Positions 363-15,876 of a stretch of 15,876 nt of DNA are shown one piece after another. The notes under the pieces are model-generated. The model saw nothing but the letters and a program-made list of their open reading frames with translations. It had not been told where the DNA came from and did no database searches. The position numbers and the translations under genes were made by a program. Positions within the stretch are counted from its first letter, which is position 1; every line of letters begins with the position of its first letter. This DNA comes from a virus: positions 1 through 15,876 of the IMG/VR virus record IMGVR_UViG_3300045988_117093; one strand, given 5' to 3'.

Positions 363-393
363 AAACCTGCCCCATAATTGAGGCAGGTTTTTT
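363..393. terminator. Bidirectional intrinsic terminator between convergent genes
   Basis: Stem AAACCTGCC (363..371) pairs with GGCAGGTTT (382..390), loop of 10 nt. A T-run follows on the plus strand (to 393) and TTTATTTTTT follows on the minus strand. Confidence 0.8.
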
Positions 394-409
394 ATTATTC
401 GCTTTTTAC

Positions 410-1126: not shown

Positions 1127-1146
1127 TTATTCGTCCTCCTTGATTA

Positions 1147-1986: not shown

Positions 1987-2002
1987 ACAGTTCACCTCCT
2001 TA

Positions 2003-2710
2003 TCACCAAACTTGTAAAAACAAATCTCGGCAAGCTTCTACAAGCTCTCTATTGATATTTTGTATTTGCTCGCGATATTCTTCAATTGCTTCACTTGTTG
2101 ATTTTCCTCTTAATCCTATCTCTTTCGTGTCTCTGTCTCTTTTGCTGTCTTTGTTGTCATTTCCTGTGTGGTCGTTTTTTGCGGTTGTAGTCGTGTTATT
2201 GACAGTTTCGCCTCTGCTCATAGCGCTCGCGTAATCTTGCGTGGCTACGGTAACTTGTGGGTTATCGCTATCAATATTTTGGTAGTTTTGGTTGTTTTTT
2301 ACTTCGCTCGTTCCTGCATCTGTTGCTTTTGTTGTTGTTTTTTCGTTTCCTTTTTCTGCTTCTGTGATTGTTATATTTACATTTGTAAAAGGGTTATCGT
2401 CTTGAATTGCATCATACAATTTTGCATAATATGGTATTAATTCATGCATTTTTGCCATGAAGGCAGTTTTCCACATTCCTAAAGTTTCAAAACCTATATA
2501 ATTATTCCAGTATCTAAGTAAAAAATATGTCTTAAAGGTATACAGGTCTTTTCCGTCCTCTGAATAAAATGGAAAATCAAAGTCAAAAAAATTCCCCTGT
2601 GTTTTGTCGATAATTCTTTGTACGGATAAGTCCATGCTCCATAGTTCTTGAGGTGGTATAAAGCTTTCACAAATTTCTTTAATAGTCGTTGTATATTTAC
2701 TCAATCTCAT
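2003..2710 (-). CDS. Lower collar protein, phi29 gp11-like (235 aa)
   Basis: FDFPFYSEDGK...IPYYAKLY and the C-terminal EYREQIQNINRELVEACRDLFLQVW resemble gp11 (DDFPFYDD...MPYYKQLY...LFMLVY). The gene sits after the portal gene. I prefer ATG 2710 (upstream AAAGGAAAAGAGGGTG, overlapping the portal stop) over the ORF-track ATG 2755, which has no RBS. Confidence 0.75.
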   Translation of the reverse strand: MRLSKYTTTIKEICESFIPPQELWSMDLSVQRIIDKTQGNFFDFDFPFYSEDGKDLYTFKTYFLLRYWNNYIGFETLGMWKTAFMAKMHELIPYYAKLYDAIQDDNPFTNVNITITEAEKGNEKTTTKATDAGTSEVKNNQNYQNIDSDNPQVTVATQDYASAMSRGETVNNTTTTAKNDHTGNDNKDSKRDRDTKEIGLRGKSTSEAIEEYREQIQNINRELVEACRDLFLQVW

Positions 2711-3596
2711 CACCCTCTTTTCCTTTTTGCATATATTTGTCTGGGATATATCCATTTAACATGGTAGGCAATTCACTATTGAAATCAACTGTCACATTTA
2801 GACCCCATAAGTCATTGATAGCATTTGCACATCTTCTTCTTAACGTCAGTCCTACGTTTCGATTTGCTTCTACCTGCCCGTTGTTTCCAGCCGTTTCACC
2901 CGTCACAAGACGTTCACCCTTTTCTACAGGGTTACTTTCATACCCTAAAGATGTTAATACTTGTGACCATAAATCTCTTAATTCCTGTTCGCATTTGTCC
3001 ACAATGTAAGGTGCGCCCAGGTCCAGTGCTTTGATGTCTTTCAAGTTTAATGAATCGGAAACTTTTAGAACAGGTAAATAATTATCATACATTTCCCCCA
3101 ATATTTCAAAGGATATTTTTTCATTATCGGAAGAAGAAAGCGCAACAGGTGTACGCTGTGCATACATATTAATCCCTTTTGTATTCCAAGTATTAGCCAT
3201 AGCATCAGCGTACATTAAAGCTTTGTAGTAGTACGGCATTGTTGAGTAGTTGCTCCATAAAATACAGCTATTTTCTTTTCCATATTCCTCTATATAACCG
3301 TTAGCTGTGTAAGCAATTCTATCTTGTGGTATATTGTAAATATCGGGCAACCCCGATAATGCAACTTTCATAAAAGCGTACCCTGCGATATCATCTTTGA
3401 TGAATACACCAAGTCCATGCCAAAATAGTGTTTGTTCAATGTACATTGGTAGAATTTCTTTAGGCAAATCATTCCATGTGTACCTATTTACAAATATGTC
3501 AAAAATATCGTAAAAGAAGATACTCTTAATTGTTTCAAAATCACTACTTTTCTTTTTATTGACATTTCGTTCAAAAATTCGCAATGGGTTTCTCAT
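2697..3596 (-). CDS. Portal / upper collar connector, phi29 gp10-like (299 aa)
   Basis: YTWNDLPKEILPMYIEQTLFWHGLGVF, NMYAQRTPVAL, APYIVDKCEQELRDLWSQVLTSLGY..EKGERLVTGE and INDLWGLNVTVDF parallel the gp10 blocks (FEWENLPPTINP.., NAQKTPVLI, APYVVDKL..EKKERMVTDE, INELYGLNVKVKF). Confidence 0.9.
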   Translation of the reverse strand: MRNPLRIFERNVNKKKSSDFETIKSIFFYDIFDIFVNRYTWNDLPKEILPMYIEQTLFWHGLGVFIKDDIAGYAFMKVALSGLPDIYNIPQDRIAYTANGYIEEYGKENSCILWSNYSTMPYYYKALMYADAMANTWNTKGINMYAQRTPVALSSSDNEKISFEILGEMYDNYLPVLKVSDSLNLKDIKALDLGAPYIVDKCEQELRDLWSQVLTSLGYESNPVEKGERLVTGETAGNNGQVEANRNVGLTLRRRCANAINDLWGLNVTVDFNSELPTMLNGYIPDKYMQKGKEGDEIE

Positions 3597-3612
3597 TTAT
3601 ACGCACCTCCTT

Positions 3613-5229
3613 TTAATCGTTGGATAGTCCATAATTCCCTATATCGTCAGTATGCCACAAAGTTACACCGTTGTCAAATATATTTCGTAACTTTTTCAAC
3701 TGGTCTAAATCAATGTCCCCCGTAAATCCACAATGAGAAGTTTTCACGTAGTTCCAATAGACTCTTGAGTGTAGATAAGGTGTCACAATCTTATTGATTG
3801 GATATCCAAATTGCTCGAAAAAACTGTCCGCCATTTCCGCAAATTGTCTTTTACAGGACATTTCATAGAAATCAACACCGCACTCCTTGATACCTGTCAA
3901 TACATTTTCTGATAATGCTTTCCCGTGTGTCATCCCAGCATTTCTAGCTCTGTCTGTCTGATTGGCTAACATTCCAAGAGCGTCCCAAAAAGCGTTCGTA
4001 GTTTTCCCGAGTCCATTAAGACCACCTTGCAAGCTTCCTCCTGCTAAACCTGCTATCGCCGTGCCTGTTCCTAGAGTGGCATCGACAGCGGTATGAACTT
4101 GTGATAGAGCGATTGAACTTTTATTTTGAGCAAGCCACGCCCTGTAAGTATCGGAAGAAAAAGAACACATCGGAAAAGAGGAATTAATAAGTGCTTCACT
4201 CATTAGTCCATGCCCTAATTCTTCGCGCGTCTTATAATTTTTCGGTGCTGTCAAGACTTGCGGTAGCGTTGCAATTGTACCGTAGCTGTCAAACTCAAGA
4301 GACTTATCTCGGCTATAACTGTACTCATATCTATAGATATGTGTGTTGCCTTGATTGTTGTCAGCTAAACAAAATAACCACGGATAAGAGTATAACTTTT
4401 TATTTTTCGGTTTATATCCCTCGAATACATTGTCAGATATCTGCATAGATGTAATTTTAGGTTTTATCTCTTTTCCACCTAATGCAAGCGTGCATAATTT
4501 TGGCGACATAAATAATCCTATAACGGCATCTTGTGCACCTTGATTGTTATAATCTTCCAACAAAGTGTTAATTCCTTTTAGTCCATCTTCTGTAGTTACA
4601 TCATAATGTCCGATACTGCCCCAACAATAAACGCCATTTTCAACGCGCCCCTCAAACCAACTTTGCTCCGCTGTTCCTCTTGTTACAAAAGCGCAACACT
4701 CTGTTGGTGTTAAGTCTAATTTTTTGTGACGTGATACAATCGTTTCGCCTGTTTCTAGGTTAACAGGCGTTAGATTTGCTCCTATTTCGTCAGCACTTCT
4801 AGGGATATGATGATACTCTACAAAGCAAGGTTTGATATTTGCATCGTAAAAGTTATTTTGAAAAACGTCTAAGGAAAAGTTAATTCTAGTTGTTTTTTCA
4901 GAGAGCCACTCAATCGAATTAATAAAGCAAAATACCCATTCGTTAGAAATCCCACTATTTTGAAAAGCTAAATAATTGAGATTAAGTGCTTTCATTTCTG
5001 TGAACGGTACGCGGATATCATAACTTCCTACTTTAATCGGGGCAAGGTGTGACAAGTCAACACTATTGATATGTTTACGATATAACTCTAAATGATTTAG
5101 CAAATCTTCTTTTGAATTGTATAATCTAACGTGTTCATACTCGTCAGACCATGGTACCCCACTATACAATCTTAATTTTGTTTCGGGGTCGCGTGGTGCG
5201 ACCCCTCCCTGAACAGGTAAATTTATCAT
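3613..5229 (-). CDS. Tail knob protein, phi29 gp9-like (538 aa)
   Basis: The C-terminus FFEQFGYPINKIVTPYLHSRVYWNYVKTSHCGFTGDIDLDQLKKLRNIFDNGVTLWHTDDIGNY closely parallels the gp9 C-terminus ([53 protein letters not shown]). The N-terminal YLAFQN...WVFCFI block is also gp9-like. Confidence 0.88.
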   Translation of the reverse strand: MINLPVQGGVAPRDPETKLRLYSGVPWSDEYEHVRLYNSKEDLLNHLELYRKHINSVDLSHLAPIKVGSYDIRVPFTEMKALNLNYLAFQNSGISNEWVFCFINSIEWLSEKTTRINFSLDVFQNNFYDANIKPCFVEYHHIPRSADEIGANLTPVNLETGETIVSRHKKLDLTPTECCAFVTRGTAEQSWFEGRVENGVYCWGSIGHYDVTTEDGLKGINTLLEDYNNQGAQDAVIGLFMSPKLCTLALGGKEIKPKITSMQISDNVFEGYKPKNKKLYSYPWLFCLADNNQGNTHIYRYEYSYSRDKSLEFDSYGTIATLPQVLTAPKNYKTREELGHGLMSEALINSSFPMCSFSSDTYRAWLAQNKSSIALSQVHTAVDATLGTGTAIAGLAGGSLQGGLNGLGKTTNAFWDALGMLANQTDRARNAGMTHGKALSENVLTGIKECGVDFYEMSCKRQFAEMADSFFEQFGYPINKIVTPYLHSRVYWNYVKTSHCGFTGDIDLDQLKKLRNIFDNGVTLWHTDDIGNYGLSND

Positions 5230-5248
5230 AGATAACTACCTCCGTTAA

Positions 5249-6520
5249 TTATGACGCTTTTGTGAAACTTGCTGTCCCTGTGATAGTCTCGTCTGGTCTG
5301 TAAATTGCTTTCAGTACGATAGTTCCTGTCTCGTCCGCTCCCGTGTGTAACAAATGTGTTCCCGGTATTACATACGTCTTTGCAGAGGTAGCACCACTTT
5401 CCACCTCAAGAGTAACTAAATTCTGATGATATGTTCCTGTACCAGCTGTAACAGTAACCGCTACTTCTTGTGTCTCACCAGCTGTATAAGTTCCATCTGT
5501 GACACTCAGCGTCGGCGCTTTAACCACTGTATCGGTCGTGAATACACGGATTGGATAAAATGGACTAGCACTGACCATTTCTACTTGTGTATAGAAGTAG
5601 TTCCATGATAAGACATTTGCGAGTCGCTGGTCACTCATTTCTTTAAACTGGTCACGTACGTTGAAGAATCGCACGTCACAGAGAACGCCCTGTATCGCAC
5701 TATTCGCGAATTTGTCTACAATCACGGTCTGAACTGCTACGTCTGCCTTATCCATATGGAACGCATATGCTAAAGCGTCAACACTAATCTGTGCATTAAC
5801 TTCGGGTGTTGTAATCCAAATCAAGTTCGCTGGCATAGCGTGTGACGTTGCTCCTGCTGGATTGTTTTCTGGCAATGGGAAGCCAAACTCTCCAACTGCT
5901 CGTTTTACTTCAATCAATAATTTTTTCGCTGATGCCTCATCCACAATCGCGTCAACGGTTACTGCTGGAAGCACCTCTTTTTCATACCCGACATTAATCA
6001 AATCACGCATAGCGAGATATTCGTCCCAGTTCGCCCCTGTGATAGCGCTTTCCATTTTTGCCATAATCATATCACGGATACCGTACTCGCTTGTAAAAGC
6101 TTTTCTAAGATTGTCATATGTAACCGTCACAGGGTACTGAATTTCAAGATTGACATTATGGAACACGCTCATGATATAAGACTGATATTGCTGGAATGCG
6201 TATTTAAAATCTGCCTGTGAGTCATAAACATGTCCTTTACACATATTCACATAAGTTTCCTCATGTGTCTCACCGTATCGCATCGGGTCTTTTTTGAAAC
6301 GTGCTAACGGGTTTCTCCATGCGATGCTGTCTACCGTCTGCATACCGATACGATTAATTAATGACGGAACAATTTCGTTCCGAACAGGGGCAAAATTCAG
6401 AATGTTATCATAGACAGCTTGTAAATTGTCTGAGACTTCCACAGGCAAGTGGTTCTGAACCTCGAAAGAAAGTTCCTGTTTGACTGCTTTTAAAATGTTT
6501 TTATTTGTTGCGTCTGCCAT
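5249..6520 (-). CDS. Major capsid protein, phi29 gp8-like, with a C-terminal Ig-like domain (423 aa)
   Basis: SLINRIGMQTVDSIAWRNPLARFKKDPMRYGETHEETY parallels gp8 [38 protein letters not shown]. The last ~90 aa are Thr/Val/Gly-rich beta repeats typical of a BIG2-like decoration domain. Confidence 0.9.
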   Translation of the reverse strand: MADATNKNILKAVKQELSFEVQNHLPVEVSDNLQAVYDNILNFAPVRNEIVPSLINRIGMQTVDSIAWRNPLARFKKDPMRYGETHEETYVNMCKGHVYDSQADFKYAFQQYQSYIMSVFHNVNLEIQYPVTVTYDNLRKAFTSEYGIRDMIMAKMESAITGANWDEYLAMRDLINVGYEKEVLPAVTVDAIVDEASAKKLLIEVKRAVGEFGFPLPENNPAGATSHAMPANLIWITTPEVNAQISVDALAYAFHMDKADVAVQTVIVDKFANSAIQGVLCDVRFFNVRDQFKEMSDQRLANVLSWNYFYTQVEMVSASPFYPIRVFTTDTVVKAPTLSVTDGTYTAGETQEVAVTVTAGTGTYHQNLVTLEVESGATSAKTYVIPGTHLLHTGADETGTIVLKAIYRPDETITGTASFTKAS

Positions 6521-6534
6521 TTGTTAAATCCTCC

Positions 6535-6816
6535 TTACTCTGTTTTACCGTTAAAGTCTAAATCTTCCACGGTAATTTCTTCTGTTTCGTCTTTTGACTC
6601 GCCTTTATCATCTGCACGAGTCGTACCCTCTGCCATTTTTTCCTTAAAGCGCTTTTTATACTCGCTCTCTAGCTTTAAATACTTGTCTTTCCATTCGCTG
6701 TCTGTTTCTCCGTCTCTTTCTCCCTCATAATTCTGTAAAACTTCAATCGCGTCACCGTGTTCCTCAACGTCTGCTACAGCGTCAATTAATTCGCTTAATG
6801 CTTCTTTAAAATCCAT
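6535..6816 (-). CDS. Scaffolding protein (gp7-like by position and composition; 93 aa)
   Basis: A small, highly acidic, helical protein directly upstream of the capsid gene, with RBS AAGGAGGTAAATAA. This is a positional inference. Confidence 0.55.
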   Translation of the reverse strand: MDFKEALSELIDAVADVEEHGDAIEVLQNYEGERDGETDSEWKDKYLKLESEYKKRFKEKMAEGTTRADDKGESKDETEEITVEDLDFNGKTE

Positions 6817-6866
6817 TTATTTACCTCCTTTATTTATAGTGTCACCCTTTTACGATATCTATTATA

Positions 6867-7874
6867 TCACCACGGAAAGAAAAAGTAAAGTGGCATTTTT
6901 GTTTTTCGTGTATGTGGGTGTACTGGATATGGCGATAATGTTTGCAAATACGCATACCATTTTAGCGCGTTCTTTTTTCTGTCCTCTTCTTTTTCCACGC
7001 CTGCACGCTCGAAATTTTTTAAAAATACTGACGCTAAATAATCGGGTTCTTTTGTGGACTTTCGAAACTCCTCCCATGATATTGGATATTTTGCTGTTTC
7101 TATCCATTGTCCGCTACTTACAGTTTCTTCATCGAGCCATACACATTGATAGTAACCATCTGTGATATCATACCCGTGTGCATTCGCCCAGTCTGTATAG
7201 ACTGTTGCTGGTGTCCACTGGACTAAACCATAACCACCATTATAATTTCCCTCTTTTAGCGACTGCCATAGCTCTGGGTTAATATTGGACTCTATCTCCA
7301 TATTTCCCAACATTCCAGCTATTGCATTCAAGGTAAAATCTTTAAAGAACATCGTGCTATAGAGTACATAAGCATTATTTTTCATTTCATCGTCTGTCAA
7401 ATAACGGTTTCCGTGAACCCACTCAAGGGGCATTCCAGCACTATCTCCATAACGATATATCTTTGTCCATGCGGATGGTTTTGACACATAATTATTAATA
7501 CTTACTTGGTCGGGTAAGGGATATCGTCCACTGTGTGCACCCATGGTAACTCCTCCATTTCCTAAGCCTGCCCCTTGATAGACCATTTCTGTATGTCCAC
7601 TACGCCACACGATGTCCCCAGCTTGCCACGCTTCATTAATGTTAATTTCTTTAAACCCAGCTTGTAATAGATAGCCCTCTTCTGTCCTTGTGGTGAACCA
7701 TGGGTTCGAGGAAAAGAACCCTGCTTCTGTAAGTGCTTTTGAGATAAAAGAACTGCAATCGTAATAAGTAATACCGTTCACGGTCTGACCTCTTCTGTAT
7801 TGTTGTGAGTATCCAATGTTAGGAGCATTACAGGCATTGACCGCCCACTGGTATGCAACATTGATATTTGGCAT
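6867..7874 (-). CDS. Tail-associated peptidoglycan hydrolase: N-terminal Cys-peptidase (NlpC/P60 or CHAP-like) plus C-terminal phage-tail-lysozyme-like domain (335 aa)
   Basis: A YDCSSFI (Cys) ... GDIVWRSGHTEMVY (His) dyad sits in the N-terminal half. AIAGMLGNMEIESNINPELWQS...GGYGLVQWT in the C-terminal half resembles the tail lysozyme motif seen in the phi29 gp13 N-domain. RBS GGAGG lies 8 nt upstream. Confidence 0.75.
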   Translation of the reverse strand: MPNINVAYQWAVNACNAPNIGYSQQYRRGQTVNGITYYDCSSFISKALTEAGFFSSNPWFTTRTEEGYLLQAGFKEININEAWQAGDIVWRSGHTEMVYQGAGLGNGGVTMGAHSGRYPLPDQVSINNYVSKPSAWTKIYRYGDSAGMPLEWVHGNRYLTDDEMKNNAYVLYSTMFFKDFTLNAIAGMLGNMEIESNINPELWQSLKEGNYNGGYGLVQWTPATVYTDWANAHGYDITDGYYQCVWLDEETVSSGQWIETAKYPISWEEFRKSTKEPDYLASVFLKNFERAGVEKEEDRKKNALKWYAYLQTLSPYPVHPHTRKTKMPLYFFFPW

Positions 7875-7890
7875 TTTACTACCCTCCGTA

Positions 7891-7930
7891 AAAATGTTTC
7901 ACGTGAAACATTTTTTGTTCCACGTGAATA
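7891..7930. promoter_or_regulatory. Palindromic motif locus d: perfect 24-bp palindrome plus a degenerate second CACGTG site
   Basis: AAAATGTTTCACGTGAAACATTTT (7891..7914) and GTTCCACGTGAATA (CACGTG at 7921..7926), with centres 21 bp apart. Both lie in the 60-bp gap between the endolysin stop and the tail hydrolase RBS. Confidence 0.6.
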
Positions 7931-7934
7931 ATCA

Positions 7935-8924
7935 TTAAATCGTGTATAACATATCTTTCGCGTAAACGATTTCAATTCCACAAGCGCGCGCCAGTCCTCC
8001 GCCAAATGTTCCTGGGTGTTCCACCCCGTTCGGGTCTTTCCCCTGCAATAAGCATAAGATTTCAAGCGCTGTGACTAAGTACTGTGTTTCCCCTCGTTTC
8101 ACATAATGCCGACCTGCTTTCGCTTTTGTCTTTTTACCAACAAGTCCGTCCTCTGCAATCGTACGGCCGTAATCCATGTTCATAGCATGTTGCACTACGC
8201 GCACCGCCATTCTTTTTGTGTTTCTTCCAACAATGCCGTCAACTGCGATTTGAACACCTGTAAAATTAATGGCGTGTTGCTGTCCCATGGCAACCAGTTC
8301 ATTTCTTGGGGTTGTGTGCGTTGGTGGACTCTGTGGAACATTAGGTACAAGATTTGAAGTTCCATAGTCTTTATAAACATGGTTCACATCACATCTGCCA
8401 TTAATACCGTCAACAGTTCCATTACTGGAATACTGCCAAATGTCTACATTGTCTACACCTAACACATTCGCATACCGAGCAATCCACAAGTCATATCCCC
8501 AAGTCTCACCGATGTATTTTTCGTACCACGATTTACTAGCGTAAATTCCAGCTTTATATCCATGCGTCAGCATAGCATCACAAAAACGCTTTGCGTTGTG
8601 CTTTGCTACAGACTGTGTTCCTTTTTCCTCGCTGTCGAAAAATACAGGTAAATTAGGAGTGTGCCCCTGTAATAATCTAAGGCAGTGATTGATTTCACCC
8701 TCAATTCTAGCTGTTGTTTTTGCGTAGGAATAAAAATAAACCCCATATGGAATACCCAATCGCTCGCATTCACTCACGTTTCGACTCCATTGTTTATCGT
8801 CTTGTGATGTCATATCCTGTCCATATCCGCATCGAATAATCACATAATCGACAGCGTTTTTTAATCGTTCAAAATCAATCACTCCATTATGATACGAGAT
8901 GTCAACCGCTTTTTTTACACTCAT
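7935..8924 (-). CDS. Endolysin: GH25 muramidase plus C-terminal PG_binding_1-like domain (329 aa)
   Basis: DISYHNGVIDFERLKNAVDYVIIRCGYG, FDSEE and IWQYSSNGTVDGINGRCDVNHVY are typical GH25 blocks. A Pro/Thr linker follows, then DGIVGRNTKRMAV...DGLVGKKTKAKAG repeats typical of the peptidoglycan-binding domain. Confidence 0.9.
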   Translation of the reverse strand: MSVKKAVDISYHNGVIDFERLKNAVDYVIIRCGYGQDMTSQDDKQWSRNVSECERLGIPYGVYFYSYAKTTARIEGEINHCLRLLQGHTPNLPVFFDSEEKGTQSVAKHNAKRFCDAMLTHGYKAGIYASKSWYEKYIGETWGYDLWIARYANVLGVDNVDIWQYSSNGTVDGINGRCDVNHVYKDYGTSNLVPNVPQSPPTHTTPRNELVAMGQQHAINFTGVQIAVDGIVGRNTKRMAVRVVQHAMNMDYGRTIAEDGLVGKKTKAKAGRHYVKRGETQYLVTALEILCLLQGKDPNGVEHPGTFGGGLARACGIEIVYAKDMLYTI

Positions 8925-8927
8925 TTT

Positions 8928-9152
8928 TTAATCCTCCTTTTTCTGTTCAAATGTATCACAAATGCGCTGTAACGCAAGTGTGTTATTATTCACTGCTTCT
9001 GTAATGTCTGACATTTCTTGCTTGTGTGACTCGTTTAGTTTATCCATGCGTGCGTCATTCTTATCTTCTCGATATTTCACATACCACATAGACGCAATTG
9101 CTACAACTGTAGGCAGTCCCAACGTGTTAATAGCTGCCATGATTTCTTGCAT
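8928..9152 (-). CDS. Holin, BhlA/UviB-like (74 aa; one N-terminal TM plus a charged coiled tail)
   Basis: TM segment LGLPTVVAIASMWYV is followed by KYREDKNDARMDKLNESHKQ. The gene lies immediately upstream of the endolysin and is translationally coupled to it, with RBS GGAGG 7 nt upstream. Confidence 0.6.
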   Translation of the reverse strand: MQEIMAAINTLGLPTVVAIASMWYVKYREDKNDARMDKLNESHKQEMSDITEAVNNNTLALQRICDTFEQKKED

Positions 9153-9172
9153 GATACCACCTCCTTTTTTCT

Positions 9173-9201
9173 ATCATAACACAAATAGAATTATTTGTAA
9201 A
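9173..9201 (-). promoter_or_regulatory. Candidate late (lysis plus structural operon) promoter
   Basis: On the minus strand: TTTACA (9196..9201), 17-nt spacer, TGtTATGAT (-10 at 9173..9178). The predicted start near 9166 leaves only ~2 nt before the holin SD, which lowers confidence. Confidence 0.45.
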
Positions 9202-9202
9202 T

Positions 9203-9353
9203 AAAAAATGTTTCACGTGAAACACTATCACGTGAAACATATTGTACGTTACAAAATAATCAATGCAAAGGGAACGCAACGCCAAAAATTGATATCAGAC
9301 TACTTGTCTATGTGCGTGTATATCAATTACAATGCCTGTATTATTTTGGGTAC
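9203..9353 (-). ncRNA. Candidate ~150-nt structured small RNA (possible pRNA analogue); hypothesis only
   Basis: It has a consensus promoter upstream and a predicted start at G 9353. A 5'/3' closing helix is formed by 9340..9348 with 9252..9260 (9 bp) plus GUAC 9350..9353 with 9244..9247. An inner hairpin pairs 9320..9327 with 9288..9295. A palindrome hairpin plus U6 sits at the 3' end. The region has no ORF. Confidence 0.3.
9209..9240. promoter_or_regulatory. Palindromic motif locus c: full site plus adjacent half site
   Basis: TGTTTCACGTGAAACA (9209..9224) and ctatCACGTGAAACAT (9229..9240), with centres 15 bp apart. The locus lies directly upstream of the -35 at 9196..9201. On the minus strand the full site is followed by T6 (9203..9208). 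Confidence 0.6.
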
Positions 9354-9359
9354 GATATT

Positions 9360-9388
9360 ATGATAACATATATCATTTGAAATGTCAA
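9360..9388 (-). promoter_or_regulatory. Near-consensus extended -10 promoter in the ATPase-holin gap
   Basis: On the minus strand: TTGACA (9383..9388), 17-nt spacer, TGtTATCATAAT (-10 at 9360..9365). The architecture is nearly identical to the ITR promoters. Confidence 0.65.
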
Positions 9389-9406
9389 TGTTTCACGTGA
9401 AACATT
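9387..9406. promoter_or_regulatory. Palindromic motif locus b: perfect 20-bp palindrome
   Basis: AATGTTTCACGTGAAACATT overlaps the ATPase stop codon (9405..9407) at one end and the -35 hexamer (9383..9388) at the other. Confidence 0.6.
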
Positions 9407-10448
9407 AAAAAGATATCACATCAAATATCATGTTCTTACACTCTAAATTTTCAAACAGAAGTAACCCTCTGTTAAAATATTCTCGTAACATTGTAACAAT
9501 GTAATGCGTTGAATTGACACGAATAGCCGTATTATCTATGACATCAGTTTTTGTAAAGCATATCCTTGTTGGAAAACTATCGTCCGCCCCTGTTGCCACA
9601 TATAGGCAAACATCATATTTTCTGACATTATATAAATTATCATTATATTTAATTGTACAAATATAACGAGACTGCCCACTTGGTTTACCAATCAAACATT
9701 CGTTATCGTTTAGATATTTGTTTTCGCTCGCATATTCGTTATATTCAGCACCTCGAAAAGCTCTTGCAATAGCACTTTCTTTATACGCGGTTGAAGCGCT
9801 TTCATTATAAGTTCTTTCAAACACCCAACCATCACCACGTAAAAATTTGGTGTCTCTCTTTAACATTTTATTGATACCAAACACGCTATAATAAGGGTTT
9901 AACAAAGATACTGTATTCGATGCCATATATAGCATAACTCTCCTGTGCTGTTTACCGTGACCCGAACTAATTGTAGTGAGCAACGATAATAATTTGTTTA
10001 CTTCGTTTGGTAAATATATATTATCTTCATCTTGGTATTCGTCAAAAAACACAGAACGAATATTGACAAACAACCCACGCATTTTTTTATACTTTCTCGC
10101 TACGGACAAAGCTAAGCAATAACCACACGGCTCTTCATTGATAAATAACTGTACTAATGCACCTCGCATCAAGCTTTTTTCAGTCATAACATAACCGTCA
10201 AATTTTTCCGCTATATCCCCAAAATAGGTATCAGCACAGTTTTTCATATCAACAACATTACGATATAAATAAATGAACTGATTTTCCGGTCTGTATTTAT
10301 CTTTTAAAAAGTCAGAAACTTGCCGACACTTAATAGAATAACTTTTACCCGCTGTTCTGTTGCCGTCCACAATAAAAATGTCGGGTGTATTCCCGTATTT
10401 ATCTTTCATAGTTAATAATCTCTCACAGTGATAATAACCATCATTCAT
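9405..10448 (-). CDS. DNA encapsidation (packaging) ATPase, phi29 gp16-like (347 aa)
   Basis: Walker A GNRTAGKSY, QFIYLYRN, Walker B SVFFDEY, YLPNEVNKLLSLLTTI and NTVSLLNPYY parallel gp16 (GARGIGKSY, QFIYVRRY, TIVFDEF, YIPNEVSALLNLMDTV, NAVSVVNPYF). I chose ATG 10448 (GGAGGTG 9 nt upstream). The ORF-track start at 10478 lies inside the palindrome half site. Confidence 0.92.
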   Translation of the reverse strand: MNDGYYHCERLLTMKDKYGNTPDIFIVDGNRTAGKSYSIKCRQVSDFLKDKYRPENQFIYLYRNVVDMKNCADTYFGDIAEKFDGYVMTEKSLMRGALVQLFINEEPCGYCLALSVARKYKKMRGLFVNIRSVFFDEYQDEDNIYLPNEVNKLLSLLTTISSGHGKQHRRVMLYMASNTVSLLNPYYSVFGINKMLKRDTKFLRGDGWVFERTYNESASTAYKESAIARAFRGAEYNEYASENKYLNDNECLIGKPSGQSRYICTIKYNDNLYNVRKYDVCLYVATGADDSFPTRICFTKTDVIDNTAIRVNSTHYIVTMLREYFNRGLLLFENLECKNMIFDVISF

Positions 10449-10465
10449 AATTTTAGCACCTCCAT

Positions 10466-10478
10466 TCACGTGAAACAT
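10466..10478. promoter_or_regulatory. Palindromic motif locus a: half site
   Basis: attCACGTGAAACATTT has a perfect right half. It lies between the early terminator and the ATPase RBS. Confidence 0.45.
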
Positions 10479-10488
10479 TTATTTTATA

Positions 10489-10515
10489 AAAGAGGTGGCA
10501 TATAGCCACCCCTTT
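10489..10515 (-). terminator. Intrinsic terminator at the end of the early (replication) operon
   Basis: The minus-strand RNA AGGGGUGGC-UAUAU-GCCACCUCU gives 9 bp including one G-U, followed by UUUAUAAAAU. On the plus strand the same position is an A-C mismatch, so the hairpin is oriented for minus-strand transcription. Confidence 0.7.
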
Positions 10516-10554
10516 AGAAGAAGAGAATTAAAATGGTATTCTCACGACATCATT

Positions 10555-10905
10555 TTATAAATTTGATACATCTAAGGTACAATTGATATAATCGCGCCCT
10601 GCTTTTGTCTTTCCACTAATTTTAATGATAGAAAATTTTTCACCGTCCATAACACTTTCAATATCTTTCAAAGACTGTCTAAAGGTTGCGGACTGTCCCG
10701 AATAAACTTTCTTATCGGGTGTGATAATACTCACAATCTCCTGCACGTCTCCGTTGTCTTTGATGTCATTAAAAATGATAAAACCGTCAACCTCGATAGA
10801 CTGCCCGTCATCAATATTTTTTAATGGCTCAATGTCGGGTGCTGTGGTCATTAAATACTTTTCAACCTTTGTAAACTCTCTGCTCATTTCTTTAATTTCT
10901 ACCAT
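10555..10905 (-). CDS. Putative ssDNA-binding protein, phi29 p5-like (116 aa)
   Basis: Size and pattern resemble p5: IVSIITPDKKVYSGQSATFRQSLKDIESV...FSIIKISGKTKAGRDYINCTLDV versus TTIFAADGSLYSAISKTVAEAASDLIDLV...FKVKVVQGTSSKGNVFFSLQL. This is a by-eye match only. Confidence 0.5.
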   Translation of the reverse strand: MVEIKEMSREFTKVEKYLMTTAPDIEPLKNIDDGQSIEVDGFIIFNDIKDNGDVQEIVSIITPDKKVYSGQSATFRQSLKDIESVMDGEKFSIIKISGKTKAGRDYINCTLDVSNL

Positions 10906-10929
10906 GTTATTTACCTCCTGTTTTTCCTT

Positions 10930-11229
10930 TTAATCTTCCTTTTTCATTTCCTGTAACTCTGCTTCGGTAACAATTTTTTCGCTCTTGACATCAGAATTGA
11001 GTAAAAACTGCTCGTCCGTCATTGCGCGTTTTTCCAATTTAAATTTAATATCTAAAATAGAAACAATATCTCCTTTGTACTGCTTTTCAATCAAGATTTC
11101 CGCTTTGTCTCTAGTCCTGCAATTTGGCAGTTTTTCGTCAAAGCAATCTTTCTTGATTTCGCCTGTCTCCTTGTCTTTGTAGACTCTTTCTACAGATACC
11201 TCCGCTGTGACTAATGTCCTTGTAAACAT
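10930..11229 (-). CDS. Putative dsDNA-binding / origin-organising protein, phi29 p6-like (99 aa)
   Basis: EKQYKGDIVSILDIKFKLEKRAMTDEQFL versus p6 KRKYKGEPVQVVSVEPNTEVYELPVEKFL. The size is similar and both have an acidic C-terminal tail. This is a by-eye match only. Confidence 0.45.
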   Translation of the reverse strand: MFTRTLVTAEVSVERVYKDKETGEIKKDCFDEKLPNCRTRDKAEILIEKQYKGDIVSILDIKFKLEKRAMTDEQFLLNSDVKSEKIVTEAELQEMKKED

Positions 11230-11297
11230 CTTGTTTTCCTCCTTTTTTCTGTGTTCTGTGAGTGTGAATGCAATGTAATATGTTTTATTACATTATT

Positions 11298-11326
11298 ATA
11301 ATATCACATTCATAAAATAATTGCAA
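11298..11326 (-). promoter_or_regulatory. Extended -10 promoter (copy B of the duplicated promoter)
   Basis: On the minus strand: TTGCAA (11321..11326), 17-nt spacer, TGaTATTATAAT (-10 at 11298..11303). Confidence 0.65.
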
Positions 11327-11329
11327 GTA

Positions 11330-11569
11330 TTATTTTATAACTTTTCTGCTATCTTTTGATTGGCATTGCATAACACCAAACTTGCTATTAATTATTCTTT
11401 TATACTGTTCTTTTGTTAAATTGCTCATGGTTGCCCCTCCAACCCAATAACAAAAACTCATAGGGTACTCACTATTCATTTCTTGATTGCTCAATCCTGT
11501 TAAATGTATGCTATCAGTATCCGCATAGCATAATCTTTCTTTATTTTCTAAAGTATCAATCATAAACAC
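11330..11569 (-). CDS. Open, RBS-equipped fragment paralogous to the DNA polymerase C-terminus (79 aa; possibly a gene remnant)
   Basis: NKERLCYADTDSIHLTGLSNQEMNSEYPMSFCYWVGGAT aligns with polymerase NKERFCYADTDSIHLIGLEDAEMVIEHPTNFCCWGCEAT, then MSNLTKEQY with MSKSAKEQF. The KTY-containing segment is deleted in frame. Start is GTG 11569 (6 nt after GGAGG) or ATG 11563. Confidence 0.6.
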   Translation of the reverse strand: MFMIDTLENKERLCYADTDSIHLTGLSNQEMNSEYPMSFCYWVGGATMSNLTKEQYKRIINSKFGVMQCQSKDSRKVIK

Positions 11570-11637
11570 CTTTTTCCTCCTTTTTTACTTACTTAACTGT
11601 GAATTGCAACGTAATATGTTTTATTTATTACATTATT

Positions 11638-11666
11638 ATAATAACACATTCGTAATATAATTGAAA
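11638..11666 (-). promoter_or_regulatory. Extended -10 promoter (copy A), directly after the polymerase stop codon
   Basis: On the minus strand: TTTCAA (11661..11666), 17-nt spacer, TGtTATTATAAT (-10 at 11638..11643). Confidence 0.6.
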
Positions 11667-11669
11667 GTA

Positions 11670-13556
11670 TTATATTGTAACTTTTTTATCTTTTTGCTGA
11701 TGTATCTTAAATGTTTTATTCCTAAGCACAATACCTCCTTTTACTCGCTCTGACTTTAAATTACAGTTATACAATTCCAAATCTGTAGTTAATTCTTTTA
11801 TGTCACGGTTTTCTGCAATGAACTGTTCTTTCGCTGATTTGCTCATGCCACACGCTTTAATATCTAAATATGGTGTATCAACTGACTCTCTGTTCTCGGC
11901 TACAATATGTTCTGCATATGTTTTTTGTCGCTCATAATATGCAAAGTCAAATGTTGCCTCGCAACCCCAACAGCAAAAATTTGTAGGATGCTCAATAACC
12001 ATTTCCGCATCTTCCAAACCAATCAAATGAATACTATCAGTATCAGCGTAGCAAAATCTTTCTTTATTTGCTAATGCGTGCCTTATCGTAAAATTCATAG
12101 CGTATGATGTAATGGCAGAACCTATCGGAATATATCCAACTCCTTTTTCATGCTCCTCGTGCAAGATAAATCTAACAACACCGTTTTCATCAAGATATGG
12201 CTCTTTATAAGATGAGTTATCAGACATTGCAAATTTTCCATAAAGGTTATTCAAAAACAGTTTTGCCAACTGACGAGAAAAGCCTTTACTGTTCTTTTTC
12301 ATTTCTGCATACTTATCAATATAAGCATCAAAAAATCCATCACGGGCATAAAACCATACATAATCATGTATCTCTAAATCATAAATTTCATAAGTATCAT
12401 TAAATAATTCCCAGTCTGTGCAAGTCATGGTCAATGTTACTTTTGTGTCGCACATATTACCGTCAGCGTCTCTATAATATCTATAATATTGCCCTTTGTA
12501 TCTAACATCAGATGTATATAAATTTTCGTTCGACTTGTACAATGCACTATGTCTAATATGCACCCAGGGAAAAGCGTTCTCTTTTACTCTAAATCTACAA
12601 GTAAAGCGGATAAAATAATACTTATTATCTGCTTTTACTAAATCTATAGGTGGCGCTCCTTTGTGATATTCTCCATGTCCAAATGGGTATTTATTGCCAC
12701 TCATGCTATGCATCATAGACGGATAAAGAGAATTTACATCATATACAAGACCCTCTCCGACTACAATATGTGCAAATTTTGGGTTCAGATAGCACCACCC
12801 ACCGTGATACGATTTATGAACATAATCCCAAATGTTCCATACACCCGTCACATCTTCGTCTAAATAATCCTCTCTTAAATCAGGGAACAATCTTTTATAA
12901 TCCTTTAAATCATAATCTGCTTTAAATTCTGATAAACAACAAGAGCCGATTGTGAGCTTTTGATGTCCCGCATCAAACATCATTTCAAGAGCTTCTTTTA
13001 ATACTAGTACATCATTTTCAATATACTTTTTCTCTTCTTCCGTGATGTTACAATATGCATATCGCATACCTGTATAAACCATTTCTAACTTTTTATGCTT
13101 TGTCTTAAAAGATTTAGCTATGTTATTGAGTGATGATGGCATTAATTTCAACGAGTTTCGTATTTCGATAAAGTTCTTGTTCCATTTTAATTTTATCCAG
13201 TACCACGAACCCAAATCTGAAATACAAGTCTGAAAAGTCTTACTTCTCATTTCCTTATCTTTACAATGTACCCATTTCCAGTTCTCTTTTAATAAAAAAT
13301 CAACAATAAAAGAACCGTCAAAAGATAGATTATGAAAATATAATATATTGTTGCCTCCCATGGTTAAAAACCGATTTAAAAAGTCTCTAATCGAATGAGT
13401 AATTGTAACTGTTTCACTGTTATCATAAAGAGCAACGTCAGCGGCAGACCATACCTCTGTACAGTCTTGCTTTTTTCTTAATTGGTTTTCTAATTCCTCT
13501 CCCCACACGGTCGTCTCGAAATCGCAAGCCCAATATGTAACATTTTTCTTTTTCAT
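11670..13556 (-). CDS. Protein-primed family B DNA polymerase, phi29 gp2-like (628 aa)
   Basis: ExoI CDFETT, ExoII YFHNLSFDGSFI, ExoIII YIENDVLVLKEAL, motif A DVNSLYPSMM, motif B KLFLNNLYGKFA, motif C YADTDSIHL and KxY QKTYAEHI all closely parallel phi29 DNA polymerase. Confidence 0.97.
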   Translation of the reverse strand: MKKKNVTYWACDFETTVWGEELENQLRKKQDCTEVWSAADVALYDNSETVTITHSIRDFLNRFLTMGGNNILYFHNLSFDGSFIVDFLLKENWKWVHCKDKEMRSKTFQTCISDLGSWYWIKLKWNKNFIEIRNSLKLMPSSLNNIAKSFKTKHKKLEMVYTGMRYAYCNITEEEKKYIENDVLVLKEALEMMFDAGHQKLTIGSCCLSEFKADYDLKDYKRLFPDLREDYLDEDVTGVWNIWDYVHKSYHGGWCYLNPKFAHIVVGEGLVYDVNSLYPSMMHSMSGNKYPFGHGEYHKGAPPIDLVKADNKYYFIRFTCRFRVKENAFPWVHIRHSALYKSNENLYTSDVRYKGQYYRYYRDADGNMCDTKVTLTMTCTDWELFNDTYEIYDLEIHDYVWFYARDGFFDAYIDKYAEMKKNSKGFSRQLAKLFLNNLYGKFAMSDNSSYKEPYLDENGVVRFILHEEHEKGVGYIPIGSAITSYAMNFTIRHALANKERFCYADTDSIHLIGLEDAEMVIEHPTNFCCWGCEATFDFAYYERQKTYAEHIVAENRESVDTPYLDIKACGMSKSAKEQFIAENRDIKELTTDLELYNCNLKSERVKGGIVLRNKTFKIHQQKDKKVTI

Positions 13557-13558
13557 GA

Positions 13559-14251
13559 TTATTCTCTTTCTATAATATTATCTTGCATATTTATAAATTG
13601 TTGGAAATCCTCACTATTTTCAAAAAATTTCATTTTTTTAAGAATATTTGAAAAAACTGCATCAATCGTTGCTTTATCCATGTATGGCTCAGTTGGGAAT
13701 ACTTCGGGTGCATTTTTATATGTGTAGCCAAACAATGCTCGTTCTGTGTCAGTAGCAGTAGCCAGTAGTGCGTCTGTTTTCATTCTTAAATAATGTGCTG
13801 TAAATGGTACAAAACTATCTAAACTATCATACCACATATCAATATATAGGTCATAATCGGGTACTGGTGCAAAGTCACGTATTAGAACACCTGTGGATTT
13901 TAATTCTTTTAACCCTTTTAAAGTGGTAATATTATTTTGTCGAGCATAATCCTGTTCAAAAGGTACTAACGATGCAAAAACTCTGTTCAAAGCTAATACA
14001 TTTTTTCTTTCCTTTTCTGATTTAATAATAAGCTCGCCTGTTAATAAATTAACAACGGGTGCGTTTTCTTTAATCACTTTCGCTGTCTGTTTTTTAAGCT
14101 TTTCAATACTTGTCTTTTTCGGTACTTTTACTTTCTGTATCGCCTTGACTAGCACGCCTTGCTCGACCTGTCTTTGTACACGTCTTAAATAATTCTTATA
14201 CTCTTTATTGTATAATTTTTGTAATTCAGATACTTTCCTTTTTCTACTCAT
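13559..14251 (-). CDS. Putative terminal protein (230 aa)
   Basis: The gene lies immediately upstream of, and is coupled to, the protein-primed polymerase, as in phi29 genes 3 and 2. It has a very basic N-terminal third and a size in the TP range. I used ATG 14251 (AAAGGTGA upstream); the ORF-track start at 14257 is TTG. I recognise no sequence motif. Confidence 0.55.
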   Translation of the reverse strand: MSRKRKVSELQKLYNKEYKNYLRRVQRQVEQGVLVKAIQKVKVPKKTSIEKLKKQTAKVIKENAPVVNLLTGELIIKSEKERKNVLALNRVFASLVPFEQDYARQNNITTLKGLKELKSTGVLIRDFAPVPDYDLYIDMWYDSLDSFVPFTAHYLRMKTDALLATATDTERALFGYTYKNAPEVFPTEPYMDKATIDAVFSNILKKMKFFENSEDFQQFINMQDNIIERE

Positions 14252-14435
14252 AATCAATCACCTTTTTCAATAATAGACCATTAGGGACACGTGTATACTC
14301 GATATAATCTCCTGCGTGTATATCTAAATCTCGAATTGCTTCTTTTGGTATCATAACTCGTGCGGTATATCCGCCTGTTCCGCCTTTTGTAAACATTACT
14401 TTGTAACGCAATAATTGGTTTGTTAATTTTGCCAT
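14244..14435 (-). CDS. AbrB/SpoVT (MazE-like swapped-hairpin) DNA-binding protein (63 aa)
   Basis: ARVMIPKEAIRDLDIHAGDYIEYTRVPNGLLLKKV fits the SpoVT-AbrB consensus (v-IPkeir..l.i..GD.ie......g.i.l.k). It overlaps the TP start by 8 nt. Confidence 0.6.
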   Translation of the reverse strand: MAKLTNQLLRYKVMFTKGGTGGYTARVMIPKEAIRDLDIHAGDYIEYTRVPNGLLLKKVIDYE

Positions 14436-14449
14436 GTGTTTTTTCCTCC

Positions 14450-14917
14450 TTATAAAAGATTAAAGACTTTCCATGTGAATTGTGAAAAATGTTCAGCTAT
14501 ATATGATACAGAAGATAAGAAAAGATATAGTAAAAATGTTGCCATGATAACGACGGACAAAATGCCTAAGAAAGAGGATATCTTTTCTAGTTTAGTGTAT
14601 GGCTCTTTTTCTTCTTCTATAGGTGCGTGCCTTTTTATCCAGTCTATTTCACTTTCATGTAATGTTTCACGTGAAACCTTTTCTGTATAAAGATTGCTAG
14701 ACGTGTCTGTCTCTATATAGTCTTTAATTCCATCTGTCGGATTGACGTAGCTCTGTCCATCAAAACCCACATAAATGTTTTTATTAGTATACAAATTTTC
14801 TACCCAGTATGGTGGGTCAACGAATAAGGATATGTAGTTGTTTAGTGAATTTTCAGTATAGAAGTCGTGCAATTCTACCCCAAAATCTGTAATGTTATGC
14901 AATCTGTATTGAATCAT
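14450..14917 (-). CDS. Early membrane-anchored protein with a C-terminal TM helix (155 aa)
   Basis: Hydrophobic segment ISSFLGILSVVIMATFLLYLFLSSV near the C-terminus, with RBS AAGGAGGAAAAATAA. I recognise no family. Confidence 0.6.
   Translation of the reverse strand: MIQYRLHNITDFGVELHDFYTENSLNNYISLFVDPPYWVENLYTNKNIYVGFDGQSYVNPTDGIKDYIETDTSSNLYTEKVSRETLHESEIDWIKRHAPIEEEKEPYTKLEKISSFLGILSVVIMATFLLYLFLSSVSYIAEHFSQFTWKVFNLL
14661..14677. promoter_or_regulatory. Palindromic motif locus e, inside the membrane-protein CDS
   Basis: AATGTTTCACGTGAAAC encodes ..VSRET.. in the 155-aa protein. It is the only copy inside a coding region. Confidence 0.45.
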
Positions 14918-15139
14918 TTATTTTTCCTCCTTTAAATAATATCTTTTTTTCCAATCATAATATAAGGCTCTAATTTTTTTCTCTTCTTCACTGCGCTCCG
15001 TTTCAGTAAAACTCGATAACTCTAAAAACGCTAAAAGTCTACCTAAATTACTTGACATAGCTATAATTGCATTATCATACAAACCTATAGAAATGTCTAG
15101 TTTAAATCTTTCATACTCTTCATTATATTTCTCATTCAT
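14918..15139 (-). CDS. Hypothetical early protein, paralog 2 of a tandem pair (73 aa)
   Basis: MNEKYNEEYERFKLDISIGLYDNAII...LGRLLAFLELSSFTETERSEEEKKIRALYYDWKKRYYLKEEK aligns end to end with the upstream 78-aa protein. Confidence 0.7.
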   Translation of the reverse strand: MNEKYNEEYERFKLDISIGLYDNAIIAMSSNLGRLLAFLELSSFTETERSEEEKKIRALYYDWKKRYYLKEEK

Positions 15140-15368
15140 TTATTTTTTCCTCCTTTGAATAATATCTTTTTTCCCAACAATTACACAATTCACGCAATTT
15201 ATTTTCTTCATTATCTCTCTCGTCCTCTGTGAAGTCTGATAGCTCTAAAAAGGTAGATAACCTACCAATTTGTATAGCCACTGCTACTAAAGATTTATCG
15301 TATAAACCTAGCTCTATATCTTGTTTACATAATTCATACGCTATTTTATATTTCTCATTCATTATCAT
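15132..15368 (-). CDS. Hypothetical early protein, paralog 1 of a tandem pair (78 aa)
   Basis: Homologous to 14918..15139 at both protein and DNA level. GGAGG lies 7 nt upstream of ATG 15368. Confidence 0.7.
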   Translation of the reverse strand: MIMNEKYKIAYELCKQDIELGLYDKSLVAVAIQIGRLSTFLELSDFTEDERDNEENKLRELCNCWEKRYYSKEEKINE

Positions 15369-15382
15369 TTTTATTCCTCCTT

Positions 15383-15703
15383 TTAATCAATCTCTAAAAT
15401 AAATTTTTTCAACACTAAATCTATAGTAGCCATATATTTATGCCCATCTTTTATATAATACATTCTATGCAAGTATCTTCCAGTGCTTCTTAAGCAATAA
15501 TCTATTGCACGCCCTGTATTATCAGTTTCACCTCGTTCTAAAATTTTAGCTATTCTGGTACGAATTTCATCATTTACTCTTATTACCATTCCTATTACAA
15601 AATCGTCGTTATTTATTTGTCTTTCAACTTCTTTCGCTTGTTTATAAAAGTTATATGAACCCTGTCCGTAACTTTCGCCCCATACAATCTTACCATTTAA
15701 CAT
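15383..15703 (-). CDS. Hypothetical first early protein (106 aa)
   Basis: I used ATG 15703 (TAAGGAGGAATAAAATT upstream, the mirror image of the left-end RBS). The ORF-track start at 15778 lies inside the ITR promoter and is rejected. Confidence 0.7.
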   Translation of the reverse strand: MLNGKIVWGESYGQGSYNFYKQAKEVERQINNDDFVIGMVIRVNDEIRTRIAKILERGETDNTGRAIDYCLRSTGRYLHRMYYIKDGHKYMATIDLVLKKFILEID

Positions 15704-15705
15704 AA

Positions 15706-15835
15706 TTTTATTCCTCCTTATTTTATATGGTTTCCTTGTTTCTATAATTATAATACCACATGCCCATTCATTTGTCAAGTATTTTTTCGTGCTTTTTAAT
15801 CAAATGGGGGACGTGGTCTCATTGGGAATAACGAA
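15706..15835. repeat. Right inverted terminal repeat
   Basis: Reverse complement of 42..171, with 124 of 130 positions identical. Confidence 0.95.
15750..15778 (-). promoter_or_regulatory. Sigma-A-type extended -10 promoter inside the right ITR (main early promoter)
   Basis: Mirror image of 99..127: TTGACA (15773..15778), 17-nt spacer, TGgTATTAT (-10 at 15750..15755). Confidence 0.75.
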
Positions 15836-15876
15836 AGATCGGAAGAGCGTCGTGTAGGGAAAGAGTGTAGATCTCG
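15836..15876. other. Illumina TruSeq adapter remnant (reverse complement)
   Basis: AGATCGGAAGAGCGTCGTGTAGGGAAAGAGTGTAGATCTCG is the exact reverse complement of 1..41. Confidence 0.97.

Follow-up and report, generated by a model that had tools for sequence, protein, structure and literature searches.

What does a fragment of a DNA polymerase gene do directly downstream of the intact gene that it resembles? The question is raised by IMG/VR virus record IMGVR_UViG_3300045988_117093, whose positions 1 to 15,876 are the stretch analysed here (the window, 15,876 nucleotides). On its minus strand, an open reading frame (ORF) of 79 codons counted from a GTG, or 77 from the ATG at codon 3, occupies 11330..11569 (ORF79). 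It lies between an intact phi29-type, protein-primed DNA polymerase gene (pol; 628 aa, 11670..13556), the parent of the duplication described below, and the immediately downstream gene g99 (99 aa, 10930..11229), to which no function is assigned and whose start codon and leader are copied into the duplication junction. Our analysis indicates that ORF79 and the intergenic region upstream of it, together termed the cassette, are probably a recombination scar, a pseudogene fragment left behind by an unequal, microhomology-mediated crossover or template switch. Any putative ORF79 peptide is most likely a by-product without maintained function.

Results

On the minus strand, the 3' end of pol and the 100-nt promoter, leader and ribosome-binding site (RBS) region behind it (12095..11570) are repeated as ORF79 and a second intergenic copy (11569..11230). 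Repeat finding recovered this arrangement as two direct repeats, one of 122 nt (11430-11551 vs 11953-12074, 75% identity) and one of 62 nt (11284-11345 vs 11624-11685, 90% identity), and a global alignment unites both in a single unit consisting of pol 3' end, stop codon, promoter-like sequence, leader and RBS. A first-pass annotation of this DNA had described such a unit as present twice, which both methods bear out. The two copies are ~75% identical in their coding part and 82-90% identical in their intergenic part, i.e. between intergenic copy 1 (IG1, upstream of ORF79) and intergenic copy 2 (IG2, upstream of g99).

The parent segment comprises pol codons 488-628 (11673..12095, minus strand) and includes motif C (YADTDS, 12050..12033), the KxY motif (11924..11916) and the thumb and C-terminus. 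ORF79 codons 2-47 (11566..11429) are in frame with pol 489-535, so that motif C is retained as codons 15-20 (11527..11510), equivalent to pol residues 503-508. A 105-nt in-frame deletion then removes pol 536-570 with the KxY region, after which codons 48-55 (11428..11405; MSNLTKEQ) match pol 571-578 (MSKSAKEQ). The frame changes after KEQ, where a net 20 nt are missing: codons 56-70 (YKRIINSKFGVMQCQ; 11404..11360), 15 of the ORF's 79, still come from homologous DNA but are translated in a frame other than that of pol; the pol frame would here give ATA AAA GAA TAA and hit a stop. Further indels bring codons 71-79 (11359..11333) back into register, and the ORF ends with the pol tail and the same stop. 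The codon-level alignment thus confirms that the motif C region and the MS..KEQ segment are kept. The earlier statement that KxY was lost through frame-preserving deletions holds for the loss itself and for the first deletion (105 nt); we rejected the view that all deletions preserve the frame, as only that first one does.

What is left of the polymerase is small. ORF79 matches the pol C-terminus by tblastn (E about 1e-12 to 1e-13), and it matches the phage DNA-polymerase profile phrog_1907 over 26 positions only (485-510); Pfam gave no match for it at E ≤ 0.1. Its motif C YxDTDS corresponds to YCDTDS of phi29 DNA polymerase (PDB 1xhx/2py5; PF03175), of which the parent pol is a full-length homologue. 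Unlike the phi29 enzyme, ORF79 is without the exonuclease domain, TPR1/TPR2, motifs A and B, KxY and most of the thumb. From the full polymerase set (Exo I-III, motifs A DxxSLYP, B Kx3NSxYG and C YxDTDS, KxY, TPR1/TPR2, thumb) it keeps motif C plus 8 and 9 residues of the C-terminal region, and we concur with the first-pass annotation that it cannot be an active polymerase. Being homologous to the adjacent parent, in tandem orientation and truncated, ORF79 is a partial duplicate.

For comparison, we gathered 51 related IMG/VR genomes by a pol-based scan, i.e. without regard to ORF79. Their polymerases fall into two clades, clade A being at least 96% identical to the window at the nucleotide level and clade B about 75%. 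Since two related pol clades co-occur in human gut samples and the duplicated copies differ by ~25%, one might suspect faulty assembly, or a chimera made from two strains in the same sample, behind the duplication. However, contigs with the same arrangement span SPAdes, MEGAHIT, Logan and JGI assemblies of many unrelated samples, with identical junctions, the same indels and the same out-of-frame segment. Moreover, no sampled polymerase has the ORF79 sequence, and there is therefore no second strain from which a chimera could be built, and the fragment contains internal deletions that no assembler would create. We therefore regard an artefact as exceedingly improbable and, in line with the first-pass annotation, which had excluded an assembly stutter, the locus as a genuine diverged tandem partial duplicate.

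The junction of the duplication (11560..11569, minus strand) reads GTGTTTATGA and consists of the first bases of g99 (ATGTTTAC...) joined to pol N-F-T-I (AATTTTACGATA). We compared three sequences directly: the 5' junction, GGAGGAAAAAG-GTG-TTT-ATG-ATT; the g99 gene start, GGAGGAAAACAAG-ATG-TTT-ACA-AGG; and pol codons 488-491, AAT-TTT-ACG-ATA, which in clade-B polymerases are AAT-TTT-ACA-AT. At this site clade-B polymerases read AATTTTACAAT, with 7 nt in common with the g99 start. The comparison places the join at a TTTAC(A) microhomology, directly after the g99 start codon, and because of this position the RBS, start codon and promoter of ORF79 would have been inherited automatically. A tandem duplication bounded by a position within pol on one side and by the first bases of g99 on the other would always yield an intact pol, an intergenic copy, a fragment ORF, a second intergenic copy and an intact g99, and the fragment ORF would borrow the translation start of g99. 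Judged from sequence, the expression signals of ORF79 thus appear to be a consequence of duplication geometry, and signals that follow from the geometry of the event are not evidence of selection. The open frame itself is not improbable under neutrality by our estimate, in which 55 codons are inherited in frame, the 15-codon out-of-frame stretch stays open with a probability of ~0.3 and the frame is restored with a probability of 1/3.

The two intergenic copies preserve a common architecture to different degrees. IG1 (11570..11669, minus strand) has a -35 element TTTCAA (11666..11661), an extended -10 TGtTATTATAAT reaching to 11635, a 10-bp leader inverted repeat at 11635..11607 (hairpin -5.5 kcal/mol) and an RBS, AAGGAGG, from 11582. 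The GGAGG and the TTTCAA-17-TGtTATTATAAT promoter reported ahead of ORF79 in the first-pass annotation are therefore present (11666..11635); the -35 is degenerate (3/6 positions) and the leader is an outlier among all intergenic copies. IG2 (11230..11329, minus strand) has a -35 TTGCAA (11326..11321), an extended -10 TATTAT (11303..11298), a leader inverted repeat at 11295..11271 (hairpin -7 kcal/mol, z -3.5) and an RBS from 11244, and scored 9/12 with TG in a promoter scan. IG2 is the copy that serves the downstream genes and is nearest to the single intergenic region of relatives. Both belong to an element conserved in ~50 relatives across this phage group, TTGACT-17-TGnTATTATAAT followed by a 10-bp inverted repeat at the leader start and GGAGG. 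Its identity across the group is 80-91% where that of pol is 72-75%, and this strong conservation accounts for the intergenic copies matching each other more closely than the coding copies do.

Some features of the element are of interest in their own right. As a whole it is far better conserved than the genes on either side. The A/U-rich 10-bp inverted repeat (UAAUGUAAUA ... UAUUACAUUG), found in ~50 relatives, starts at or just after the -10 of the promoter between pol and g99 and could act as an operator or form a hairpin in the 5' leader. A strong promoter-like site, TTGACA-17-TGnTATTAT at 15778..15750 (minus strand), just inside the right terminal repeat of the genome, is a weak third relative (63%) of the duplicated element. 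An Rfam scan of the whole window at E ≤ 1 gave nothing in 11230..11670 and only a sub-threshold OxyS match at 12877-12978.

Could the extra promoter and leader be the selected part of the cassette, with the pol fragment as a mere spacer? Two promoters in tandem, spaced by 340 nt, would increase the transcription of g99, the SSB-like gene and the ATPase gene beyond it or shift its timing, and the first-pass annotation had offered a spacer with a second promoter as one role. IG1 does retain an extended -10, a leader inverted repeat and an RBS, is 97-100% identical among cassette copies, and belongs to an element that is unusually conserved group-wide. The architecture of this candidate promoter of ORF79 is conserved in relatives, but its -35 has decayed and it has been deleted in some genomes: a 52-nt deletion (11660..11609) removes the promoter core of IG1 in 5 of the 28 distinct cassette-bearing genomes (L002-type). 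A plain ~100-nt intergenic region suffices in 40 of the 51 relatives, and the identity of IG1 among cassette copies is equalled by that of ORF79 and of pol A and therefore reflects recent common ancestry and not special constraint. The upstream promoter copy is dispensable, and we consider selection for a second promoter improbable.

The distribution of ORF79 among relatives is patchy. A search for the same fragment in the 51 relatives, as the first-pass annotation had proposed, located ORF79 in five, four of clade A (L002-5) and one of clade B (L009), and it is absent from the other 46, including L001, whose pol protein is 100% identical in tblastn, L006-8 (pol 97-98%) and 42 of the 43 clade-B genomes. 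In L009, L059 and L062, whose pol is of clade B (~75%), the block from ~11740/11700 to ~11300 is nonetheless 97-100% identical, and it shows two different left breakpoints. There are also reciprocal recombinants: L006-8 combine an A-type pol with a B-type last ~85 nt, and L009 is the mirror image, its B-type pol ending in ~85 nt of A type. In L001, an IG2-type region directly follows pol A, which is the product expected of repeat-mediated loss. Together, the identical blocks in clade-B backgrounds, the reciprocal recombinants and L001 indicate that homologous recombination between conserved flanking sequences brings the cassette into genomes, removes it and re-assorts it, with crossovers in the terminal ~85 nt of pol and in the intergenic repeats, which are strongly conserved. 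The cassette is a dispensable presence/absence polymorphism.

The breakpoint zone of L006-8 and L009 lies at ~11755, about 85 nt upstream of the pol stop, in a conserved TGTAATTTAAAG stretch. This suggests that the 3' end of pol is a crossover hotspot separating the left (replication) arm from the right arm.

We examined the origin of the fragment through nonsynonymous (dN) and synonymous (dS) divergence over 48 in-frame codons. ORF79 and pol A share 75% nucleotide identity (dN 0.22, dS 0.92), ORF79 and pol B 53-61% (dN 0.40-0.52, dS about 1.8-2.1 or not computable), and pol A and pol B 66-71% (dN 0.21-0.30, dS at least 1.5 or not computable). The codon alignment proposed in the first-pass annotation gave a pairwise dN/dS between ORF79 and pol of 0.24. 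Among 120 pol clusters (90% identity), the closest to ORF79 is the resident type A (25/40 residues), and the promoter spacers of IG1 and IG2 carry an A-specific signature, with 87-90% identity compared with 64-78% to other intergenic types; both findings place the origin of the fragment in the A lineage. Divergence among extant cassette copies does not exceed 2.5% and among clade-A polymerases is about 1.5%, and from this low variation it follows that the ~25% divergence of the fragment predates the clade-A radiation. The suggestion that the duplicate is either old or acquired by recombination with a relative fits these values.

A donor polymerase closer than the resident one was not found among the 51 loci, the 120 pol clusters or 1.84 billion representatives, although representatives were collapsed at 50% or 90% identity, such that a sister lineage could be hidden. 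Homologues of ORF79 outside the cassette were likewise absent from 5.8 billion clustered proteins and the 1.84 billion representatives, bar weak pol matches, and protein searches with ORF79 returned its own alleles, one 51%-identical pol fragment (P0026) and three repetitive chance matches. The divergence would have arisen either in a now-unsampled sister polymerase, with which the low pairwise dN/dS of 0.24 would be in keeping, or by long in-situ decay. In a rough chi-square calculation of our own on the nonsynonymous/synonymous split, in-situ decay was not rejected (p about 0.08).

That the frame stays open despite divergence and indels had been read in the first-pass annotation as a sign of selection, possibly for a small polymerase- or terminal protein-interacting peptide. 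In the window genome and L002-5, a small sample taken without regard to ORF79, ORF79 carries 7 replacement changes (6 missense, 1 nonsense) and 1 silent change, compared with a replacement:silent ratio of 27:61 for pol in the same genomes (Fisher p = 0.003), i.e. constraint is relaxed relative to the parent gene. Changes in ORF79 affect residues that are conserved among the 120 pol clusters (FCCW to FCYW, RF to RL and EHP to EYP), the first two without variation at the level of the 90% clusters. At least seven disruptive alleles of independent origin are present: a nonsense codon (C69*), the gain and the loss of one T in a T5 run (+T, -T), a +GG and a -G change within a G run, an in-frame deletion of 57 nt and one large deletion. 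Several disruptive alleles also recur across projects (P0019 in 6 contigs, P0022 in 3, P0008/P0009 in 5 and in an NCBI record). Natural relatives thus tolerate broken alleles as well as full absence of ORF79.

Frameshifts in relatives had been named in advance as the mark of a decaying remnant, and relatives do carry frameshifts, a nonsense codon and deletions in ORF79, which speaks against a selected gene. Nor does the open frame imply selection, given inherited signals, 15 codons out of frame and a predominance of replacement changes. Across all sampled alleles, 5 silent changes compare with 8-11 replacement changes, with nonsense changes in addition, which at a site ratio of 4.9:1 corresponds to a dN/dS of about 0.3-0.45; most of the pooled loci had been picked for an exact match to the ORF79 protein, a choice that hides replacement changes and lowers dN. 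For a similar reason we set aside a comparison of diversity (ORF79 pi 0.008 vs pol dS 0.057), the loci having mostly been fetched by exact ORF79 protein identity.

ORF79 is not the only insertion at this site. A second pol-derived ORF of ~62 codons (ORF62 type) lies between pol and g99 in the clade-B genomes L027 (3806-4182), L038 (3091-3461), L039 (~4040-4460), L042 (2866-3246), L044 (3421-3790) and L124. Recognisable in it are motif B as LNSLYG, motif C as YADTDS and the pol tail DKK*, and it matches the same part of phrog_1907 as ORF79; Pfam searches with ORF62, and with g99, gave no matches. Like ORF79, ORF62 is pol-derived and decaying, and it is flanked by promoter copies on both sides in L027 and L038. 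Unlike ORF79, it covers motif B to motif C, has a truncated upstream leader copy and is far more diverged from its own pol, with only motif C aligning by BLASTP (E 0.001). The L038 and L044 alleles differ by a dN of 0.228 and a dS of 0.244 (omega 0.93), and two of five alleles examined are broken, L027 by loss of the start codon and L039 by a frameshift and stop. The ORF62 type is an event independent of ORF79.

At the same site in L028 (2815-3696), an 880-nt insertion encodes a 232-aa DNA methyltransferase (phrog_757, E 2e-57; FPPC motif), a typical accessory gene occupying the hotspot. The ORF62 fragments and this methyltransferase mark the pol-g99 intergenic region as a plasticity hotspot of the phage group, in which pol fragments thus behave as neutral debris. 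We rejected the idea that pol fragments are a family-wide feature: a scan of 78 loci, some of them already in the first set and many with more distant polymerases, gave only the ORF79 and ORF62 types, along with one further weak and probably spurious match in L140.

With both fragment types in hand, we weighed a functional pol-derived mini-protein, e.g. a peptide that acts as a decoy or dominant negative by binding terminal protein, polymerase or origins and either modulates the phage's own replication or interferes with co-infecting relatives. This explanation would accommodate an intact commonest allele with its own RBS and promoter-like sequence, the retention of motif C in both independent pol-fragment ORFs, the presence of the cassette in several genomic backgrounds and the pooled dN/dS from the biased sample. 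It is at odds with the seven independent disruptive alleles, some of them seen in several studies, with the 7:1 ratio in the unbiased set, with the out-of-frame codons and altered conserved residues, with the absence of the cassette from close relatives that have near-identical pol, and with the neutral ratio of the analogous ORF62-type fragment. An AlphaFold2 model of ORF79 (single sequence, no alignment), itself weak evidence, had a predicted local distance difference test (pLDDT) score of 40 and no confident fold. We consider a functional mini-protein unlikely, and the interacting-peptide role is not supported.

The genomic setting is that of a small gut phage. Inverted terminal repeats of 171 nt (1-171 and 15706-15876, 96% complementary) mark the window as the complete linear genome of a phage with protein-primed replication. 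Nearly all genes are on the minus strand, where the order is pol, ORF79, g99, SSB-like gene, packaging ATPase gene. The pol product matches phrog_1907 (E 5e-126) and aligns almost full length with the phi29 polymerase structure 1xhx (E 2e-76), and PF03175 is precomputed for its homologues. Downstream of g99 lie a gene with weak similarity to the phi29 single-stranded DNA-binding protein (SSB; 10555..10905, minus strand; PF17427 Phi29_Phage_SSB, E 7e-5, below cut-off) and the packaging ATPase gene (9405..10478, minus strand; phrog_2150 terminase, with PF05894 Podovirus_Gp16 on record for homologues). Hundreds of relatives are found in gut metagenomes. Among GenBank phages, blastn in distant mode gave two weak partial matches only, with no close or annotated relative.

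The genome has a second tandem duplication, this one of whole genes: the adjacent early genes at 15132-15368 (78 aa) and 14918-15139 (73 aa), both on the minus strand, are paralogues with 58% identity (BLASTP E 1e-27), and their copy number appears variable among relatives, judging by overlapping blastn matches. A palindrome, AATGTTTCACGTGAAACATT, recurs in intergenic positions at 7893-7912, 9207-9226, 9387-9406, 10460-10485 and 14661-14680 (2 exact, 3 with mismatches). An operator for a phage regulator is one possible role, the stem of a bidirectional terminator another, and a candidate binder is a 63-aa MazE/AbrB-like protein (14244..14435, minus strand; PF04014, E 3e-6).

Discussion

We propose that the cassette arose when the opening bases of g99 became attached to pol at codon ~489 on a second, related molecule. 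The product would have been pol, an intergenic copy, a g99 start fused in frame to a pol 3' fragment, a further intergenic copy and g99, and it would have been tolerated since pol and the downstream promoter and gene stay intact. The event probably took place on the stem of the clade-A polymerase lineage, and the fragment would either have been already diverged from the resident pol at joining or have diverged since. Later, 105 nt including KxY would have been lost and the frame-shifting indels acquired. At present, the cassette is eroded by point mutations, frameshifts and deletions.

Several observations weigh against reading the cassette as a decaying scar. The pairwise dN/dS of 0.24 would suit a sequence that diverged while part of a working polymerase in a sister lineage, or a fragment under selection. 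Without a closer donor, in-situ divergence and a foreign donor cannot be separated. The pooled dN/dS, taken alone, would hint at mild constraint. Most sampled ORF79 alleles are intact, and the commonest one is widespread, being indexed in 88 blocks of the collection. Finally, a selective advantage would give the same presence in several genetic backgrounds that we attribute to recombination.

A more speculative possibility is that the motif-C-retaining mini-ORFs, having arisen twice at this site, are expressed as frequency-dependent interference peptides against the protein-primed replication of co-infecting relatives. If so, an advantageous cassette would spread through the promoter repeats, and its broken alleles would reflect fluctuating selection and not neutrality. 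We think this a long shot and continue to favour a recombination scar.

A scar of this kind resembles the mosaic joints of tailed phages, in which, in the Hendrix/Hatfull model, illegitimate recombination leaves mosaic joints and gene remnants. As in those joints, a microhomology or non-homologous join lies at a gene boundary, is tolerated as its neighbours stay intact, and is then shuffled by homologous recombination in conserved flanks, which gives a presence/absence polymorphism. In contrast to those joints, the partners here are the same locus, so that an unequal crossover produced a tandem partial duplicate and did not join unrelated genes, and the birth, spread, loss and decay of the cassette are all readable from population data. 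Morons, the additional transcription units that sit between essential genes of phages, offer a second parallel: ORF79 is a small, variably present ORF with a promoter-like sequence between two conserved genes, and in L028 the same site holds a bona fide accessory gene. Unlike morons, ORF79 comes from the adjacent pol (clade-A lineage) and is not a foreign gene with an accessory function, it shows no sign of maintained function, and no terminator-like site was found between it and g99. Our literature search found no description of polymerase-fragment duplicates in phi29-like phages.

Phage mosaicism is expected to leave behind gene fragments from unequal or illegitimate recombination, and the importance of one more is limited. 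The cassette nonetheless illustrates the process cleanly in a protein-primed phage of only 15.9 kb, with a junction microhomology that can be read directly. Inherited expression signals explain the gene-like look of such scars, which calls for caution in annotation, as ORF79 is routinely annotated as a hypothetical protein. The conserved promoter repeats serve as handles for gain, loss and transfer, and the erosion of the cassette is visible in public metagenomes.

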